DNA of 55,941 nt from a virus (taxonomy: Duplodnaviria; Caudoviricetes): the IMG/VR virus record IMGVR_UViG_3300021087_000017, positions 1 through 55,941 of that record; one strand, 5' to 3'. A model generated the notes under the pieces. That model was not told where the DNA came from and did not search any database. It was given only the letters and a program-made list of their open reading frames with translations. Below, piece after piece: positions 2,593 to 49,237 of the stretch (its first letter is position 1; each line of letters starts with the position of its first letter). The translations under genes were made by a program, and so were the position numbers.

Positions 2593-3666
2593 TTATGCTA
2601 TGTTGTACTTGGCATTAGCAACTGCTTCTGGGCGAAGGATTTTCCGACCATAGAGATGCATACCACGCACGATATCCGCAAAACTATCAGGATCACGATA
2701 AGATTCAGTTTTCGTGATCTGACTTGCAGTGGCAATAGCAGAAGCATGACCCGCAACAATAACACCATAGTTAGAGTTCTGGTTAGCGGTACCACTTGTA
2801 CCGGGACCAGTACCTACAGAAGGTAGATTGTTGGAGACATACACCTTAAAGCCGTAGTAGTTGTTTAGAACCAGCCCATTACGCAACGCACCAGATTCAC
2901 CGAAGTCTGAATTTAGAAAACGTGAGTCTTCGTCCATTAGAACTTCCATAAAGTGAGGCGAAATAACAAGCCAGCGACCATCCTTGTCCACAAACTGCGT
3001 GTCCAACAGACGGCCCATACGAGCCACAACCATGTTTGGAGATGCCGTAGCAGTGGGAAGGGCACTAGCACCGGGAAGTCGGGGAGCAAGCGGAATAGAA
3101 TGCGTACCCGCCGAAGTCGTAGTGATGCTACCGAAATCACCCTTCTTTAGCTGCATGGAAGATAGCAACTCATTTGAACCAGCAGTCGAAACAGCCTTAG
3201 TTCCAGATACCGTAGTATTAGCGGTACTGGATACAGCACTGAGAGAAGCTTGAGCAAAACCAGAAAGGTAACCCAAAACTTCCATGTCATACTGATCCTT
3301 CAGACGATAACCCGCCCGATCAGATGCCATCGACTGAAAATTCACATGCGAATGCGCCTCTTCAATGTCATCTACCTTGAAAGCAAAGTAGTTTGCCTTG
3401 TCTACGACAAGACTAAAATCTTCATCATCAAGGTCTTGTGGAGTAACCTGAGCACCACGGGCATATTCTTTGACCGTGATTTCAGGCTCTTTAATAATGC
3501 GGACAGTATCGCCCATACTGGCGATCTCACCAAAGTAATCATTATTGGTGATGTCCTCTGCGACAGACGACTTACGAAAAGCAAGCTGGGTCTGTTTGGA
3601 ATAAATTACAGGGCTAAAATTACCGTTAGGTAAATTGTTATAACCTGCAGCACGAGTAAAAGCCAT
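2593..3666 (-). CDS. Major capsid protein
   Basis: NFSPVIYSK, GDTVRI, FAFKVDDIE and FADIVRGMHLYGRKILRPEA motifs typical of this HK97-fold capsid family; follows the scaffold gene. Confidence 0.92.
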   Translation of the reverse strand: MAFTRAAGYNNLPNGNFSPVIYSKQTQLAFRKSSVAEDITNNDYFGEIASMGDTVRIIKEPEITVKEYARGAQVTPQDLDDEDFSLVVDKANYFAFKVDDIEEAHSHVNFQSMASDRAGYRLKDQYDMEVLGYLSGFAQASLSAVSSTANTTVSGTKAVSTAGSNELLSSMQLKKGDFGSITTTSAGTHSIPLAPRLPGASALPTATASPNMVVARMGRLLDTQFVDKDGRWLVISPHFMEVLMDEDSRFLNSDFGESGALRNGLVLNNYYGFKVYVSNNLPSVGTGPGTSGTANQNSNYGVIVAGHASAIATASQITKTESYRDPDSFADIVRGMHLYGRKILRPEAVANAKYNIA

Positions 3667-3719
3667 ATTAGCTCTCCCTTTCTCGTATTTAACAGACGCT
3701 AACTTACGATTGTCTTGTA

Positions 3720-3868
3720 GAGGCTATTTTTTCAGGGTGCATTAATTAATATATTTGGCCTAACATATTAGTAATGGGCCTAAAGTAAAATAGGTAAATC
3801 ATTAAGATAATAGTAGTTGCATATTTTAGTTCGACGTATGAGTAGTCCTGTAATAATAGGAGGTCATA
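3720..3868 (-). promoter_or_regulatory. Structured 5' leader of the capsid gene (two hairpins with CC/YAC internal loops)
   Basis: 3868-3837 reads TATGA-CC-TCCT-loop-AGGA-CTAC-TCATA. 3800-3720 reads GA-TTTAC-CTATTTT..TTAGG-CC-CATTA...TAATG-CAC-CCTGA..AAAATAG-CC-TC. Confidence 0.65.
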
Positions 3869-3882
3869 AAATTATACTTATA

Positions 3883-3910
3883 GTTATATAGATATATTAC
3901 GATTTGTCAA
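3883..3910 (-). promoter_or_regulatory. Sigma70-type promoter for the capsid operon
   Basis: Minus strand TTGACA-N16-TATAAC just after the scaffold stop codon. Confidence 0.65.
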
Positions 3911-3913
3911 GGA

Positions 3914-4774
3914 TTATCTTGCTGATCCTGAAATATCGTAAATAAATTTATCAGTACGAATAGCTTCCATAATAGCATCTTGATTCTCTTCGTACTCATC
4001 ACTTGACATGTCTTGTACACTAGACTCTCTAAAGTAATCTGAAGTCTCATCTGATTGGGGGCGGCTTCGTTCAGTCTTTTCAGATACAGCAAAAGCAGCA
4101 TCCTTATTACTTTTCTTTTTAGTAGCTTTAATACCCTTATCAGATTTATATAGATCAATTGCTCTGGCTGCAGCTAAGGCATCTACATCATTTTCGTATA
4201 AAACATCTTGAATCCACTTAGGTTGTTCTTCTGCCCATTCGTGAAATTCATCCTGATTTCGTATATCAGCAAAGTCTGGATGTAGTTTCATTAAATGTGC
4301 TTCTGCTTTATTACGCTCTACCTCTTCCTGCATTTCATCTATTTCTTGTATACGATCTTTTAATCCTTGTGATTGTTCTTGGGCTTTTCTTATTGCTATT
4401 GTCTCAATAATACCCGCTACGTCTGGGTATTGCTGTGCCCATGCTTCTATCTCTTCTTCTGTTTTAGGTAGCTTTATTGATTCTTTAGTTGAAGCATCTA
4501 GCTGTGTTTCTAATTGCTTAACCTTTGCTTGTAATTCATCTGTTTGTTTTTGACTATGCCTACGTAAATCACCGTATCTCTTTTTAAATGTTTTTTCTTC
4601 AGAAGACTTAGGGGTTTCTTCTACTTGTTGTTGCTCTTCTTCCTCTGAGTTACCTTGTTCAGAAAGTAATTCTTTTAGCTCTTCTTCTTCTCGCTCAATC
4701 TTTTCTTGATTAGAGTTAGGTTTCTGCATAAAAGTTTTCTTAGGTATTTCTTTAACTTCTTCTAATTCAGGCAT
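3914..4774 (-). CDS. Capsid assembly scaffolding protein
   Basis: Highly charged coiled coil with FKKRYGDLRRH and LHPDF motifs; lies directly upstream of the major capsid gene. Confidence 0.8.
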   Translation of the reverse strand: MPELEEVKEIPKKTFMQKPNSNQEKIEREEEELKELLSEQGNSEEEEQQQVEETPKSSEEKTFKKRYGDLRRHSQKQTDELQAKVKQLETQLDASTKESIKLPKTEEEIEAWAQQYPDVAGIIETIAIRKAQEQSQGLKDRIQEIDEMQEEVERNKAEAHLMKLHPDFADIRNQDEFHEWAEEQPKWIQDVLYENDVDALAAARAIDLYKSDKGIKATKKKSNKDAAFAVSEKTERSRPQSDETSDYFRESSVQDMSSDEYEENQDAIMEAIRTDKFIYDISGSAR

Positions 4775-4789
4775 CGTAAGTCTCCTTTA

Positions 4790-4843
4790 CCGGGGCCACC
4801 GTAGCTGTATAAATAAATATAAATACAGGGGATGAGTAGCCAG
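4790..4843 (-). promoter_or_regulatory. Structured leader hairpin abutting the scaffold RBS
   Basis: CTGG-CTAC-TCATC-CC-CTGTAT-loop-ATACAG-CTAC-GGTGG-CC-CCGG, followed directly by TAAAGGAGA and the ATG. Confidence 0.7.
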
Positions 4844-4855
4844 CCTATGGGTTTA

Positions 4856-6505
4856 TTACACTCGTCTGGCAAAACCCTTACCATTACTACGTAATCTTTT
4901 AGTTGGTTTCTTTAGTTTACGTCTAGCAGCTAAACCGCCTAAAGACCAACTTGGATCACCAAACTCACCGCCGTCATCGGATTCTCCGGGCGTACCTTCG
5001 CCTTCACTGTCTTCACCTTCCATACCACTATTGCTTGCTGCCTCTCCCGGTGCTGCGTCTGCATCCACACCCGGTGTATCGGGGTCTTCACCTTGTGATG
5101 GATTACCTATGTTTCCAAAGCCCTGACCTTGACCTGCACCTTGTGATGCAACACCTATGTTTCCAAAGCCCTGACCTTGACCTGCACCTTGCGACGATAA
5201 TGATGGCGCATCAAAGCCAATGGTATCTTCATCAACATCAACTCCGGTAACACCGAAGCTAGGGGTACCCGGAGGGGTTGCGCCGGATAGATCAGCACCA
5301 AATAAGGCATCTACATCTACATCATCTGGAAGGCCCGGAGGGGTTGTATCCTCACCTTTAGAAGTAACATCTGTCCCATATAAAGCCTCATCTTCTGCTT
5401 CTGTTGTTCCAAGTGGTCCCCACATACCATAAGTAGTGCCCCGACCAATTGCATCAAATAATGCCTCAAGACTTGGTAAGTCACCAGCACCCATATTAGG
5501 ATCACCTGTACCTTCTGGCCCGGATTCAGGGCCATCCGGCCCACCAACAGCACCGGGGCCTTCTGCTAGTGTCTCATCTGGTTTTTCTTCTTCTTCTGGT
5601 TCATCTTCTACTTCATCTGGTTCATCGGGCGTCCAAGGATTAGCACCGGGATTATCTGGATCAAACCTTTGATAACCATCTGGCTCATCATATATTTGCC
5701 TACCATTAAGAACAGGAATTTGTAAAATTACACCGTCTTCATTCCTAAAGAAATTAAAGGAAGTCACACCACCAGTAACATCACCAAAATTAGGTAGTGT
5801 AGGTAGTATTCCGGGCGGGGTAGTACCTGCAACTGGTGCTCCTGTACGAACCGGCCCCGGATTAATACCGGCCATTGTAGTATTAGTAAAAGTAGTTGGA
5901 GTAGTAATTTGTCCTACATTTGCTGGTGTAACTGTTGGTTGGGCAGTTACTTGGGGTTGTCCTGTAGCAGGGTTAATAGTATTAGTATACATAGTTTGTG
6001 CAGGTGGTAAATAAGAAGTATTAGGAATAGTTTGTTGAGTAGAAGGATTAACGTAACCACCTGTTTGAAAATTCCGATTATCCTGTTGCATAGGCATTCC
6101 ACCATATCTAGCAGCAGGTTGTTCTTCTGGCATACCTTCTTCGTCTTCTACGTATTCCATATCAACTACAGAAAAGGGTAGCCCACCGGGATTAAACATA
6201 GCAGTATCAGGAATACTGGCTTCATCTGGATTCCCCATCTGGCCCATAGCTTCCATCTTTTTGTAGCCCATCTTAGCTTCATCACGCAGCTTCATAAAAT
6301 GTTCTACCCCGTGATAGCGAACTACATCTTCTGGAATAACCATCTCTCCTTCGCTGACATTTGCTTCAATGTCATCGCGTACTCCCTCTTGAGTACCTCC
6401 GGGTGGAACTGCATTGCCAGAAACAGAATCAACCTCTCCACCTTCTTGCATCAATTCCATATTATTTTCTTCTTTAAACATTTCCATTTGATCATCTAAA
6501 GCCAT
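4856..6505 (-). CDS. Acidic low-complexity head-associated protein of unknown function
   Basis: N-terminal RDDIEANVSEGEMVIPEDVVRYHG domain, long Gly/Pro/Asp/Glu-rich region and basic C-terminal tail; lies between portal and scaffold genes. Confidence 0.6.
   Translation of the reverse strand: MALDDQMEMFKEENNMELMQEGGEVDSVSGNAVPPGGTQEGVRDDIEANVSEGEMVIPEDVVRYHGVEHFMKLRDEAKMGYKKMEAMGQMGNPDEASIPDTAMFNPGGLPFSVVDMEYVEDEEGMPEEQPAARYGGMPMQQDNRNFQTGGYVNPSTQQTIPNTSYLPPAQTMYTNTINPATGQPQVTAQPTVTPANVGQITTPTTFTNTTMAGINPGPVRTGAPVAGTTPPGILPTLPNFGDVTGGVTSFNFFRNEDGVILQIPVLNGRQIYDEPDGYQRFDPDNPGANPWTPDEPDEVEDEPEEEEKPDETLAEGPGAVGGPDGPESGPEGTGDPNMGAGDLPSLEALFDAIGRGTTYGMWGPLGTTEAEDEALYGTDVTSKGEDTTPPGLPDDVDVDALFGADLSGATPPGTPSFGVTGVDVDEDTIGFDAPSLSSQGAGQGQGFGNIGVASQGAGQGQGFGNIGNPSQGEDPDTPGVDADAAPGEAASNSGMEGEDSEGEGTPGESDDGGEFGDPSWSLGGLAARRKLKKPTKRLRSNGKGFARRV
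5089..5194. repeat. 48-bp in-frame tandem duplication (SQGAGQGQGFGNIG x2)
   Basis: acctatgtttccaaagccctgaccttgacctgcaccttg occurs at 5105 and 5153. Confidence 0.9.
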
Positions 6506-27864: not shown

Positions 27865-29868
27865 ATGAAAGTTGTATTGGACATAGAGAATAGCGTAACT
27901 AAACGAGGAGGTAAGACACACTTCGATCCCTTTGAGCCTACCAATGAATTAGTTTTAGTTGGTACTCTTACAGAGATGGGAGAGGAAGAACACTTCTCCC
28001 CTGCTAAGAGTTCCGGTCTTCAAAGTATTCTGGATAAGACCACGCTACTTATAGGACATAACATAGCCTACGATCTGGTATGGTTGTGGGAGTGTGGCTT
28101 TGTGTACGACGGTGTAGTGTTTGATACAATGCTAGGTGAGTACCTACTACAGCGTGGACAGAAGCAACCCTTGTCATTAGAGGCTTGTGCTGAGAGGTAT
28201 GAGTTAGAGACACAGAAAGAAAGTACCCTTAAAGATTACCTAAAGAAGGGTGTAAGCGTAGCAGACATACCTACAGAAGAACTATCCGCTTATCTTAGTG
28301 CAGACTTACATGCTACCCAGCAGCTATACAATAAAATACAGGAGCGTTTGCAAGGAGAGAAAGATTGTAAGCTATACAAAACAATTGAGATGACTAACAG
28401 GGTAGCGTGTGTACTGGCACATATCTTTCAGCGTGGGTTCACTGTCAATAGGGATGAGTTACTGCGAGTTAAAGATGAATTTGAAGCAGAGAAACTACAG
28501 CTACAGACTACCTTAGACCAACGGGTTAGTCAGCTAATGGGTGACACACCTATTAATCTTAATAGCCCTGAACAATTGTCATGGGTAATCTATTCTAGGA
28601 AGGTGTATAATAAACAGACATGGGTTAATGACACTAGCTTTGTTACAGGTACAGAGTTTCAACAAAAGATTAAAGAGAACTCAACCATTATGTATAAGAC
28701 AGCAGCCACTAAATGTTCAGGCTGTTACGGGAATGGTAAGATAAAGAAGACACGTAAGGATGGTAAGCCCTTTACCAAAGCAACCAAGTGTGCCATGTGT
28801 GCTGGTGCTGGGTACACCCTGAAACCTACCAAAGAAGTAGCGGGCCTGAAGTTTAACGTGCCCAATAATAGTTGGGTAACTGCCGGGGGATTCACCACTA
28901 ACAAAGGTTACCTCGAAACCCTTGAGGCTACTGCACGAGGCAGGAAGAAGATGATTGCAGTTAGTTTCCTACATGATGTTCGTAGGCTTAGTGCATTGGA
29001 CACTTACCTGTCTTCCTTTGTGGACGGCATTGACCTGTACACCAAGCCAGATGGTAGGCTGCACGTACAGCTAACCCAGCACATGACAGCTACAGGCAGG
29101 TTCAGTGGTCGTAATCCTAACATGCAGAACATGCCTAGAGGTGGTACCTTTCCTATCAAACGTGTGTTTGTCAGCCGCTTTGAGGGAGGTAAGATACTTG
29201 AGGCAGACTTTGCCCAGCTAGAGTTCAGGACAGCAGCGTACCTATCACAAGATAAGCTAGCTATGCAGGAGGTTAGGGAGGGCTTTGATGTACACAGCTA
29301 TACCGCTGATATTATCAGTAGGGCAGGTCAGCCTATAAGTAGACAGGAAGCTAAGGCCCACACCTTTGCTCCCTTATATGGGGCCACTGGCTTTGGGCGT
29401 AGCCCAGCAGAAGCTACCTACTACAAACACTTTATAAATAAGTATACTGGTATAGCTAGATGGCACAGTGCCTTGGCTACTGCCGTTCTATCTAGTGGGC
29501 TTGTAACTACACCGTCTGGCAGAGAGTTTTCCTTTCCAGATTGTGAGCGTAGGCGTAACGGTACACCTTCGCACTTCACACAGATAAAGAATTACCCCGT
29601 GCAATCCTTTGCCACAGCAGACATCGTACCTTTGGTACTACTGTATATTGAGGAGTTGCTTGAGGGTATGAAGACATGCATCGTTAATACGGTGCATGAT
29701 AGTATAGTACTTGATGTTCATCCAGAAGAAGAGGAGTATGCCCTAAGTGTAATAGATGAGGTCAATGACAATCTTCACGACTTGATCCAGCAGCAGTGGG
29801 AAATAGATTTTAATGTACCACTACTGTTAGAAGCAAAAATAGGTGAGAATTGGCTTGACACTAAATAG
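27865..29868 (+). CDS. polA: DNA polymerase family A with DnaJ-type zinc-finger insertion
   Basis: Exonuclease LDIE and GHNIAYD; polymerase TATGRFS, DFAQLEFR, AKAHTFAPLYG, NYPVQS and VHDSI; CSGCYGNG...CAMCAGAG insert. Confidence 0.96.
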   Translation: MKVVLDIENSVTKRGGKTHFDPFEPTNELVLVGTLTEMGEEEHFSPAKSSGLQSILDKTTLLIGHNIAYDLVWLWECGFVYDGVVFDTMLGEYLLQRGQKQPLSLEACAERYELETQKESTLKDYLKKGVSVADIPTEELSAYLSADLHATQQLYNKIQERLQGEKDCKLYKTIEMTNRVACVLAHIFQRGFTVNRDELLRVKDEFEAEKLQLQTTLDQRVSQLMGDTPINLNSPEQLSWVIYSRKVYNKQTWVNDTSFVTGTEFQQKIKENSTIMYKTAATKCSGCYGNGKIKKTRKDGKPFTKATKCAMCAGAGYTLKPTKEVAGLKFNVPNNSWVTAGGFTTNKGYLETLEATARGRKKMIAVSFLHDVRRLSALDTYLSSFVDGIDLYTKPDGRLHVQLTQHMTATGRFSGRNPNMQNMPRGGTFPIKRVFVSRFEGGKILEADFAQLEFRTAAYLSQDKLAMQEVREGFDVHSYTADIISRAGQPISRQEAKAHTFAPLYGATGFGRSPAEATYYKHFINKYTGIARWHSALATAVLSSGLVTTPSGREFSFPDCERRRNGTPSHFTQIKNYPVQSFATADIVPLVLLYIEELLEGMKTCIVNTVHDSIVLDVHPEEEEYALSVIDEVNDNLHDLIQQQWEIDFNVPLLLEAKIGENWLDTK

Positions 29869-48235: not shown

Positions 48236-49237
48236 TTAACCCACCAAAAACCCAGTCATCCAAGTTGTTGGGTATGCTGCCCCGAAAACGTCTATAACTT
48301 TTGAACCGTTACTCACTTGAAGTTGCATAACAACTTCAGCAGCGGCAGCTAGTTTAATTGTTGCCGCTAGAGGTAAATATAGATTATTGCCGGCATTAAA
48401 AACATTTCCTGCATCTAGATTATATTGATACCAGTTATCTGTTCCATCAAAGAAGAAAGCATCTAATATAGTATGGTCTGTTGCTACTTGCAGCATCGCA
48501 ATTCCACCTTGAAAGCAATAAGTTCCTGCAACAGGCGCAACAAACTTATTATTCGCAAGATCAAAATCGCTATTAACATCCCATTCAGCAGCGTCAAGCG
48601 CAATTGTGTACCGTGTGCCATCTCCCGTAACATTGGCTACGTTTGCACTTACCCTGACGCCAAAGGAACACGATAATGGTTTACGAACATGCCCAGCAGC
48701 GTCAAATGCCATATGAGTTGTAGTGCCTAAAGCTGATCCTAGACCAAGTACAAGTTCATCAGCAGTATCATCTAAGCCGATATGAAAATCTTGGGCATTA
48801 CCATCAAATACAATCTTAGCATCCTCTGCACCAGCATCGCCAATCGTCAGTGTCGGCGTGGTGCCGGAAATAAGCGCACTATTTGTAACAGTTAGCGTAC
48901 CCGGTGTAGTGAGATTGCCGCTAAGTTTAGCTGACGTAATAGTAGCATCTGAAGGCGTACCAATCTGAAGCTGTTCACCCATCGCTACGCCAAAGAAGTT
49001 ATCACCAGCAGTAGGAGCAGTCGTAAAGGTAATGTTTGTACCGCTTACCGTGTAATCAGTTGTGGGTTCTTGAATAACACCATTGATGCTAATGATCAGA
49101 GCTTCTGGACGAACAGGCGTAATCGCAATGCCGTTACTGGCTATAGCATGAGTAGCATCGCTACCATCAAAGTCTCCTGAAAAGTCATCCAGCTTACTAT
49201 AGTTTCCGTGCTGGGGTGATTTACCTAAATATGGCAT
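48236..49237 (-). CDS. Tail fibre / receptor-binding protein with C1q-like tip
   Basis: MPYLGKSP start, INGVIQEP..DYTVSG...FTTAP module, FVAPVAGTYCF and terminal GFLVG. Confidence 0.72.
   Translation of the reverse strand: MPYLGKSPQHGNYSKLDDFSGDFDGSDATHAIASNGIAITPVRPEALIISINGVIQEPTTDYTVSGTNITFTTAPTAGDNFFGVAMGEQLQIGTPSDATITSAKLSGNLTTPGTLTVTNSALISGTTPTLTIGDAGAEDAKIVFDGNAQDFHIGLDDTADELVLGLGSALGTTTHMAFDAAGHVRKPLSCSFGVRVSANVANVTGDGTRYTIALDAAEWDVNSDFDLANNKFVAPVAGTYCFQGGIAMLQVATDHTILDAFFFDGTDNWYQYNLDAGNVFNAGNNLYLPLAATIKLAAAAEVVMQLQVSNGSKVIDVFGAAYPTTWMTGFLVG

Follow-up and report, generated by a model that had tools for sequence, protein, structure and literature searches.

Recurrent CC/YAC internal loops in the scaffold and capsid gene leaders of HMO-2011-type phages

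Head-gene leaders and their shared internal loop

The window analysed here is a complete 55.9-kb virus record (IMGVR_UViG_3300021087_000017), and the subject is a small internal-loop module that recurs in the leaders of two of its head genes, those of a putative scaffolding protein and of the major capsid protein. In blastn the head region matches Roseobacter phage CRP-1, Puniceispirillum phage HMO-2011 and their relatives at ~66–70% identity, which bears out the original prediction, made from the sequence alone, that this is an HMO-2011-type phage. The portal gene, a 549-residue open reading frame (ORF), a 286-residue ORF and the major capsid gene lie in this order on the minus strand (Table 1). 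We call the 286-residue ORF ‘scaffold’ by position, because its family, PHROG 13678, has unknown function and the protein has no Pfam family.

The building block found in both leaders is an asymmetric internal loop with CC as its short strand and a long strand of 3–5 nt that ends in AC (CUAC, CAC, UUAC or CAAC), flanked on both sides by helices that covary in related phages. It is used once or twice, in opposite orientations, just 5′ of the ribosome-binding site (RBS) of the scaffold gene, and three times in the ~200-nt 5′ untranslated region of the capsid gene. Recurrence of the loop in both leaders had been proposed originally, and the letters and coordinates given then for the five CC/(N)YAC loops (minus strand; 4844–4790, 3868–3837 and 3800–3720) are all correct. 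We regard it as strongly supported that these loops form one uncatalogued family of structured mRNA-leader elements, carried by HMO-2011-type marine podophages and related alphaproteobacterial phages.

The scaffold-leader element occurs in two forms. Type A, the form present in the window, is a double module with the order P1-[CUAC]-P2 (5–6 bp)-[CC]-P3 hairpin-[CUAC]-P2′-[CC]-P1′. Type B is a single module, GG-[CUAC]-hairpin of 5–8 bp-[CC]-CC. The element ends at the RBS, as had been claimed, with the Shine–Dalgarno (SD) sequence 3 nt beyond it. Across 53 unique leaders of relatives and the window, its 3′ end lies ~12–22 nt before the ATG, and in some clades P1 extends into the SD itself.

The capsid leader contains two further elements. 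In hairpin 1 the order is stem-[CC]-stem-loop-stem-[CUAC and variants]-stem. Element 2 is a double module, P1-[N-YUAC]-P2-internal loop-P3-[CC]-P4/apical hairpin-[CAC]-P3′-internal loop-P2′-[CC]-P1′, and has the same two opposed modules as scaffold type A, set further apart. Both are the minimum free energy (MFE) folds of their own segments. The stretch that separates element 2 from the capsid SD contains a further small hairpin, UCGUA...UACGA (window 3682–3712, minus strand), whose place is taken in relatives by a different one, GCUU...AAGC.

Table 1. Coordinates of the head genes and leader features in the window
Feature	Position	Strand	Letters, composition or basis
Scaffold-leader element, type A double module	4790..4844	minus	sequence, model R1, covariation in relatives
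Scaffold element P1	4843-4840 / 4793-4790	minus	CUGG / CCGG; sequence
Scaffold module M1	4839-4836 opposite 4795-4794	minus	long strand CUAC opposite CC; sequence
Scaffold element P2	4835-4831 / 4800-4796	minus	UCAUC / GGUGG; sequence
Scaffold module M2	4830-4829 opposite 4804-4801	minus	CC opposite CUAC; sequence
Scaffold element P3	4828-4823 / 4810-4805	minus	CUGUAU / AUACAG; 12-nt loop 4822-4811; sequence
SD of scaffold-position gene	4782..4786	minus	AGGAG; 3 nt after element; ATG 4774
Candidate sigma-70-like promoter	3883..3910	minus	-35 TTGACA 3910-3905, 16-nt spacer, -10 TATAAC 3888-3883; 4 nt after scaffold stop codon
Capsid hairpin 1	3837..3868	minus	UAUGA 3868-3864, CC 3863-3862, UCCU 3861-3858, loop 3857-3850; MFE fold
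Capsid hairpin 1, 3′ half		minus	AGGA 3849-3846, CUAC 3845-3842, UCAUA 3841-3837; MFE fold
Capsid element 2, double module	3720..3800	minus	MFE fold, model R2, covariation
Element 2 P1	3800-3799 / 3721-3720	minus	GA / UC
Element 2 M1	3798-3794 opposite 3723-3722	minus	long strand UUUAC opposite CC; sequence
Element 2 P2	3793-3787 / 3730-3724	minus	CUAUUUU / AAAAUAG
Element 2 P3	3784-3779 / 3736-3731	minus	UUUAGG / CCUGAA
Element 2 M2	3778-3777 opposite 3739-3737	minus	CC opposite CAC; sequence
Element 2 P4	3776-3772	minus	CAUUA + partner UAAUG; apical stem and loop; sequence
Element 2 apical hexaloop	3756..3761	minus	AGGCCA, self-complementary GGCC core; palindrome kept in relatives
SD of major capsid gene	3674..3678	minus	GGGAG; sequence
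Portal gene	8782-6656	minus	phrog_332/1216
549-residue ORF	6505-4856	minus	without family; no Pfam match
286-residue ORF, scaffold position, putative scaffolding protein	3914..4774 (ATG 4774)	minus	phrog_13678 (unknown function), E 8e-59
Major capsid gene	3666-2593 (ATG 3666)	minus	phrog_267 major head protein, E 3e-64

Covariation and distribution in related phages

Within the window alone the pattern is not demonstrably non-random, and the case rests on relatives. A loose scan of the window (CC opposite CUAC, at least 3 + 3 and 7 flanking pairs, span up to 120, both strands, 30 dinucleotide shuffles) returned 7 and 6 CUAC-type matches per strand against 4.2 and 3.4 in the shuffled controls, which is chance level. 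Among these 13 matches, the three CUAC-type copies in the leaders rank highest in flanking pairs (9–11).

A scan of IMG/VR with the capsid protein matched at least 600 stretches, at least 596 of which encode a relative, and the best 80 were fetched (74–96% identity). Synteny is held in the fetched loci: the scaffold homologue, which follows the scaffold-leader element in relatives, is succeeded by a spacer of 206–330 nt in most and then by the capsid gene. The set used for separate MFE folding comprised 64 unique capsid and 58 unique scaffold leaders; later capsid counts refer to 66 unique leaders. Common internal loops in these independent folds are CC/CUAC (29), CC/CAC (19), CC/UUAC (9) and CC/ACAC (8) for the capsid leaders, and CUAC/CC (16) and CC/CUAC (5) are among the commonest for the scaffold leaders. 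Covariance models were built for scaffold type A (R1), capsid element 2 (R2) and capsid hairpin 1 (R3). Each alignment was compared with 500 shuffles, and element 2 additionally with slid controls. The element-2 MAFFT set and the hairpin-1 set had been preselected by parses demanding pairing, and alignments A3, A5 and A6 were fitted to the model.

The helices of the scaffold-leader element covary. In a MAFFT alignment of 19 type A sequences, 93.8% of the cells are paired against 86.3% in shuffles, both sides change at 6 of 11 pairs (1/500 shuffles) and the covariation score is 0.405 against 0.238 (0/500). The model-fitted alignment of 22 distinct sequences gives similar values: 94.2% of cells paired, compensatory changes at 6 of 11 pairs (a count reached by 9/500 shuffles) and covariation of 0.404 against 0.239 (0/500). 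For type B (17 sequences; L078 and L080 are misaligned and counted as gaps) all cells are paired (100%) and the inner helix covaries, with a score of 0.246 against 0.111 (0/500).

A strict parse recovered element 2 in 50 of the 66 capsid leaders. Fifteen gave no parse, although R2 later matched eight of them, and one mis-parse (L050) was dropped. Among 23 parsed sequences aligned with MAFFT, 87.2% of cells are paired against 70.2%, compensatory changes occur at 21 of 24 pairs, no shuffle reached the observed value of any measure (0/500) and slid controls give 32–45%. With 56 distinct sequences the figures are 91.3% against 69.5% for the shuffles and 23 of 24 pairs, again with 0/500 for each of five measures and 34–43% in slid controls. 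In columns 16–21 and 97–104 of this alignment (A5), between P2 and P3, an xAGUA strand stands opposite GAA... in 39 of these 56 relatives and resembles a sarcin–ricin (bulged-G) module; the window's element 2 does not have it, and the corresponding stretch is helical there. Hairpin 1 was parsed in 58 of the 66 leaders. Its alignment (37 distinct sequences, L006 left out) has compensatory changes at 7 of 7 tested pairs and a covariation score of 0.953 against 0.270 (0/500). The parse required the three inner pairs of the outer stem and two pairs of the inner stem, leaving only the two outermost pairs free of parse bias; these are paired in 28/37 and 34/37.

The loop letters are conserved while the helices change. 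The short strand is CC in 55/56 and 54/56 sequences for the two capsid element 2 modules, in 21/22 for scaffold M1 and in 17/17 for type B; for the inner scaffold loop the count is 17/22, the shortfall reflecting misalignment of variants with a 6-bp P2. The long strand is CAC in 52/56 for capsid M2, CUAC in 18/22 and 20/22 for the scaffold modules and in 15/17 for type B, and N-CUAC, N-UUAC or a close variant in capsid M1. A G-C pair flanking the module is invariant (54/54 in capsid M2 and 22/22 in the scaffold element) and is compatible with the base triples of a C-loop. The distance between modules is also kept, at 5–6 bp in the scaffold leader and, along the 5′ strand of element 2, at 12–16 nt (15 in 35/50) despite differing sequences. 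The apical loops of the scaffold element and of hairpin 1 vary among relatives in length and sequence. Alignment of leaders across related phages, which had been proposed as a check, therefore reveals both covariation and loop conservation.

The models are specific for the two leaders. In the window, R1 scores 48.1 bits (E 1e-10) at the scaffold leader as its sole significant match, R2 scores 70.8 bits (E 3e-19) at element 2, and R3 scores 25.4 bits (E 5e-4) at hairpin 1, its only match below E 1 with filters off. No further copy was found elsewhere in the complete genome by R1 or R3 with filters off or by the loose scan. Weak R1 matches at 48619, 38121 and 23765 (E 0.6–2.4) and an R3 match at 29398–29422 (E 1), inside a 667-residue ORF (27865–29868), were set aside as chance or partial. 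In the relatives R1 has exactly one match per source in 32 of 83 sources, HMO-2011 and CRP-1 included, each just 5′ of the scaffold gene. R2 has one match each in the capsid leader of 64 of the 83, plus one weak antisense match (L075, E 0.088). Clades without an R2 match (L001–L004, L007, L010 and L012 types) show the same architecture by eye or parse.

Over 168 distinct loci (1.35 Mb), CUAC-type matches number 279 on the sense strand and 40, the background level, on the antisense strand, and every cluster of sense-strand matches corresponds to one of the two leaders. A seemingly separate third site, ~1,900 nt ahead of the capsid start, turned out to be the scaffold leader of loci whose two genes lie 600–700 nt further apart. 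The strand bias, together with the covarying helices and their frequent G-U pairs, upholds the earlier claim that the signal lies in RNA of the sense strand.

The elements reach well beyond the close relatives of the window. A scan with the exact type A pattern matched at least 120 contigs. Among the matches listed are 119 new loci, in which the match lies directly 5′ of a scaffold homologue (110), at a contig end (2) or in unrelated direct repeats (7); the pattern thus adds at least 112 contigs. The 110 scaffold homologues are 43–64% identical to that of the window, and capsid identity in the listed set goes down to 59%. Both elements are carried by HMO-2011, CRP-1, Rhizobium phage RHph_N3_13 and Sinorhizobium phage phiM6. 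The last two, with 68-kb genomes, have the double module before the scaffold-position gene and element 2 before the capsid gene, and no hairpin 1. All named hosts of carriers are Alphaproteobacteria, for which either a host factor or the common head module could account. Contigs from RNA libraries (four runs, three studies) match the window with 0 mismatches at 4632–4882 (X15), 3682–3832 (X17) and 3775–3929 (X18) and with 1 mismatch at 4719–4837 (X16); such contigs carry no strand, start or level and may derive from DNA carry-over, so that they attest presence in libraries and not transcription, and the uncovered parts are uninformative.

Two groups of relatives differ in the scaffold leader. 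In the clade of L010, L011 and L020 a plain hairpin replaces the scaffold-leader module, and the capsid-leader modules are kept with the outer CC changed to UC. In L007, L014, L028, L042 and L053 the scaffold element is preceded by a promoter-like stretch and by additional plain hairpins, one or two in number; the scaffold gene of these clades may have its own promoter.

Putative capsid promoter and apical loop of element 2

Two features of the capsid leader are new here, a conserved promoter ahead of it and a self-complementary loop at the tip of element 2. The promoter-like site recurs across the 66 unique capsid leaders, with TTGACA in 54, a 16-nt spacer in 54 and TATAAC in 49. The promoter scan did not list it because the scan requires T at the last −10 position; in alphaproteobacterial housekeeping promoters the −10 often ends in C. 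Judged by its letters, the site would give the capsid gene its own transcript. Hairpin 1 starts ~15 nt past the −10 hexamer in the window, near the predicted 5′ end of the capsid mRNA, and 12–20 nt past it in most leaders.

Of 105 distinct element 2 sequences, 87 have a hexaloop at the tip. A central 4-nt palindrome is present in 83 of these 87 (GGCC 63, GCGC 9, GUAC 6 and UGCA 5), the four non-palindromic hexaloops are each one change from GGCC, and longer loops carry GAUC. The flanking bases are of a purine type, A....A, in 36/87. Replacing one palindrome by a different one takes two or more coordinated changes, and neighbouring bases of one hairpin loop cannot pair with each other, which together argue for pairing between two RNA copies. 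Since the stems below the loop covary and hold G-U pairs, the palindrome is a feature of the RNA and not a DNA operator. The loop therefore suggests kissing-loop dimerisation of the capsid mRNA leader. It resembles kissing loops of the retroviral dimerisation initiation site (DIS) type, whose palindromic core often has purines on either side and is replaced only by other palindromes; in the phage loop, too, self-complementarity is kept through change. Unlike the DIS type, the phage loop has a 4-nt core in a hexaloop of an mRNA leader, and its dimerisation is predicted from sequence. We know of no function for mRNA-leader dimers in phages. Neither the scaffold elements nor hairpin 1 nor the leaders of the two rhizobiophages contain a palindromic loop. 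Because it is restricted to element 2, the palindrome supplements the shared module and does not account for it.

Proposed docking of a trans-acting factor and its alternatives

The elements have no match among known RNA families. When window positions 3400–5200 were searched against Rfam 15 with E values of up to 10, only noise came back, the best match reaching 19.6 bits where the gathering score is 76, and at gathering thresholds 20 related loci (139 kb) gave 0 matches; this is the search that the original prediction had called for. No description of the element was found in the published literature. The family could well be among the unnamed DNAVirus_N models of PMC10690425, a bulk survey that lists 8,495 candidates for structured RNAs in the intergenic regions of IMG/VR. 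This survey draws on the same data source and the same kind of evidence, covariation, and its accessible text names no capsid or scaffold leader motif of the CC/YAC kind.

In size and letters the module fits a C-loop. As far as the accessible parts of the published descriptions go (PMC2952876, PMC9516175, PMC3273805, PMC4551918), the term C-loop denotes an asymmetric internal loop in a hairpin stem whose long strand typically starts with C; two long-strand bases cross-pair with the flanking pairs, and one unpaired base lies between them. In these accounts the motif is group IL_73276 in the RNA 3D Motif Atlas, with examples in 16S h15, 23S H38/H50, the E. coli thrS operator and loop 26 of potato spindle tuber viroid (PSTVd), and one instance has single insertions on each strand. 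The short strand is given as having 0–2 extra nucleotides (PMC4551918), and C-loops are presented as protein-binding, twist-adjusting modules with a long strand of the C-N-C/A type (PMC2952876, PMC9516175, PMC4551918). The likeness to C-loops noted at the outset agrees in loop dimensions and letters with these descriptions, within their accessible parts (PMC9516175, PMC2952876, PMC4551918). All five window copies are 2 × 3–5 loops, set between helices for which relatives show covariation. In most modules the long strand opens with C (in capsid M1 with N-CUAC or N-UUAC), a second C or A follows two to three positions on with an unpaired base between, the Watson–Crick pairs on either side are conserved as in C-loops, and the 2-nt short strand stands at the upper limit of the range. 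CC/CAC fits directly and CC/CUAC with one insertion, the phage long strand often having 4–5 nt whereas the C-loop core has 3 (one insertion is known in H38). We therefore file the module as C-loop-like. No other case is known to us in which a C-loop recurs with invariant sequence as a repeated unit in the leaders of two mRNAs.

The best explanation, in our view one that stands at an even balance between being right and wrong, is a conserved leader RNA family that docks one trans-acting factor for both head genes. The module would be the docking site, the factor would most likely be a protein, and its binding would tune, for the two most abundant head proteins jointly, translation or the fate of the mRNA. 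Because the element abuts the SD, the factor would compete with the 30S subunit at the scaffold gene. The capsid mRNA would start at its own conserved promoter, and its leader, whether bound or folded, would have a remote effect on mRNA stability, folding or access to a standby site. From position and pattern, a regulatory role of the leader elements is plausible, and the scaffold-gene copy is, as far as its sequence context indicates, placed like a classical translational operator. Protein–mRNA operators such as thrS, the ribosomal-protein leaders, T4 gene 32/regA and MS2 coat abut the SD, mimic the primary RNA substrate of their protein and have conserved apical loops; in thrS the structured element consists of two similar domains bound by a dimeric protein. 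The scaffold element abuts the SD in the same way, and the thrS operator has its C-loop in a stem according to the accessible text of PMC9516175. Unlike the operators of this type, the phage elements keep only the internal loop, the apical loops of the scaffold element and hairpin 1 being free to vary.

Several observations weigh against this reading. Fold z-scores in the window are unremarkable (scaffold leader −0.25 and −0.74, hairpin 1 −0.90, element 2 −2.28). The percent-paired figures lean towards structure because of the parse preselection and model fitting. In type B the outer 2-bp helix (GG/CC) is invariant and so lacks covariation support, and its count of compensatory pairs (2/7) is reached by 182/500 shuffles. 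In the nearest-neighbour model the proposed scaffold-leader fold of the window has −9.4 kcal/mol, against −14.0 for an MFE fold in a shifted register. We rejected this register (GGCUACU with GGUGGCC) because relatives give its shifted helix no compensatory pair; three of its seven pairs depart only by unpaired cells. Loop variants (CAAC, CCAC) are not, by eye, correlated between the two leaders of the same genome. The distance of the capsid copies from the start codon (~45–64 nt for element 2 in 48/50 parsed leaders, ~170–200 nt for hairpin 1) means that simple steric occlusion of the ribosome does not apply at the capsid gene. The Pfam search found no family and no recognisable RNA-binding domain in the 286-residue protein. 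Finally, in P22 only 13 nt separate the portal gene from the start of gene 8, whose end in turn is overlapped by gene 5; these junctions leave no room for a comparable leader, and P22 is rejected as a structural precedent.

A serious rival remains, in which the leaders are self-contained, cis-acting architectural elements without a dedicated trans-factor. The compact fold would shield the 5′ end of the capsid mRNA against decay, insulate the RBS from sequence upstream or serve as a ribosome standby or enhancer site. We think this possible, though doubtful. Hairpin 1 does lie where the capsid mRNA is predicted to begin, the SDs are strong and free of pairing, and the elements stand only before the two genes needed in largest amounts; C-loops are also described, in the accessible text, as architectural, twist-adjusting modules (PMC9516175, PMC4551918). 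Mere protection, however, does not call for a CC/YNAC loop that stays invariant at five sites while capsid identity falls to ~59%, and the type B elements, with 7–10 bp in all, are thermodynamically weak.

If the docking of a trans-acting factor is taken as the preferred reading, the scaffold-position protein is a rather unlikely candidate for that factor, suggested by analogy with P22. The accessible text of a P22 study implicates the N-terminus of its scaffold in translational autoregulation (bioRxiv 10.1101/2022.12.13.520362). The systems would have in common a head-assembly gene, in a phage with a P22-like coat fold, that is tuned post-transcriptionally. The P22 precedent invoked originally thus holds as a functional analogy only, and fails as a model of the leader. 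Improbable, too, is a modular ribonucleoprotein switch, in which C-loop-like modules would dock unassembled scaffold or coat, the capsid leader would self-pair through its apical loop, and scaffold and capsid synthesis would be tied to the pool of free subunits. If true, a tailed phage would here have the first defined RNA operator that sets head-protein stoichiometry, and C-loops together with a kissing loop would be in natural use as a phase-setting assembly device.

We also consider it improbable that the elements serve RNA–RNA assembly, with a capsid-leader homodimer whose helical phase is set by the C-loop-like modules, or form riboswitch-like pockets for a small ligand or ion. The first idea draws on the palindromic hexaloops described above, on loop bases that cannot pair within one loop and on covarying stems whose G-U pairs point to RNA rather than DNA; since the scaffold elements, hairpin 1 and the two rhizobiophage leaders have no such loop, dimerisation is not the shared function of the module. 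The second can appeal to the repeated small modules of some riboswitch classes, but no conserved alternative pairing with the SD is seen by eye, and no Rfam riboswitch matches. A specific form of such pairing, between AGGAGG and the CC plus the P1 3′ strand (CCUCU), is possible in the main clade and was rejected as a misfit, by eye, in the window and in the L007 and L014 clades.

Processing sites for RNase III or other nucleases, or intrinsic terminators and attenuators between head genes, are hardly probable. The elements do occupy intergenic positions in a polycistronic late region, and RNase III sites of the T7 type consist of hairpins interrupted by internal loops. None of the elements is succeeded by a U-tract, the terminator scan reported nothing at these sites, and type B, with its 7–10 bp, is shorter than the approximately two helical turns that RNase III needs. 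A DNA-level signal (repeated protein-binding boxes, operators or a cruciform) is the least credible: the scaffold leader does contain direct repeats of GGCTAC and CCCC, a promoter precedes the capsid leader, the apical hairpin is near-palindromic as DNA and L075 has its weak antisense match, but the helices change sequence while pairing is kept, antisense matches are at background, the seven pattern matches outside a scaffold context are direct repeats, plain coding or tandem, that do not pair, and the many G-U pairs (UG 9 with UA 6 at one position of the scaffold element, GU 20 at one of the capsid element) would read as A-C mismatches on the opposite strand.

Phages of the HMO-2011 type rank among the most abundant viruses of surface seawater, and scaffold and capsid are the proteins that a phage must make in the largest and best-balanced amounts. 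To our knowledge, P22 scaffold autoregulation was described without an operator, and the question of head-protein balance has been open since. An invariant short RNA loop used five times in two head-gene leaders, from marine SAR116/Roseobacter phages to soil rhizobiophages, offers a testable handle on this balance. For RNA biology, it presents a naturally occurring C-loop-like module that is employed repeatedly as a sequence-specific unit, and a covarying palindromic loop that predicts mRNA-leader dimerisation. Models R1–R3 could be used to annotate head modules and capsid promoters in marine viromes.

Some further features of the locus vary. A 177-residue protein encoded downstream has a DUF5013 match below the Pfam threshold (13.9 bits against a cut-off of 28.5). 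The loci with 600–700 nt more between the scaffold and capsid genes are L067, L108–L112, L125, L130, L146, L149, L182, L185 and L197. In L067 a 195-residue ORF without a Pfam match (325–912) lies inside the capsid leader, its end overlapping element 2. The capsid protein of the window is 91–96% identical to those of L001–L005, but its leader has the architecture of more distant clades, and R2 has no match in L001–L005; the capsid leader and the capsid gene of the window (2593–3913) seem to have different histories.

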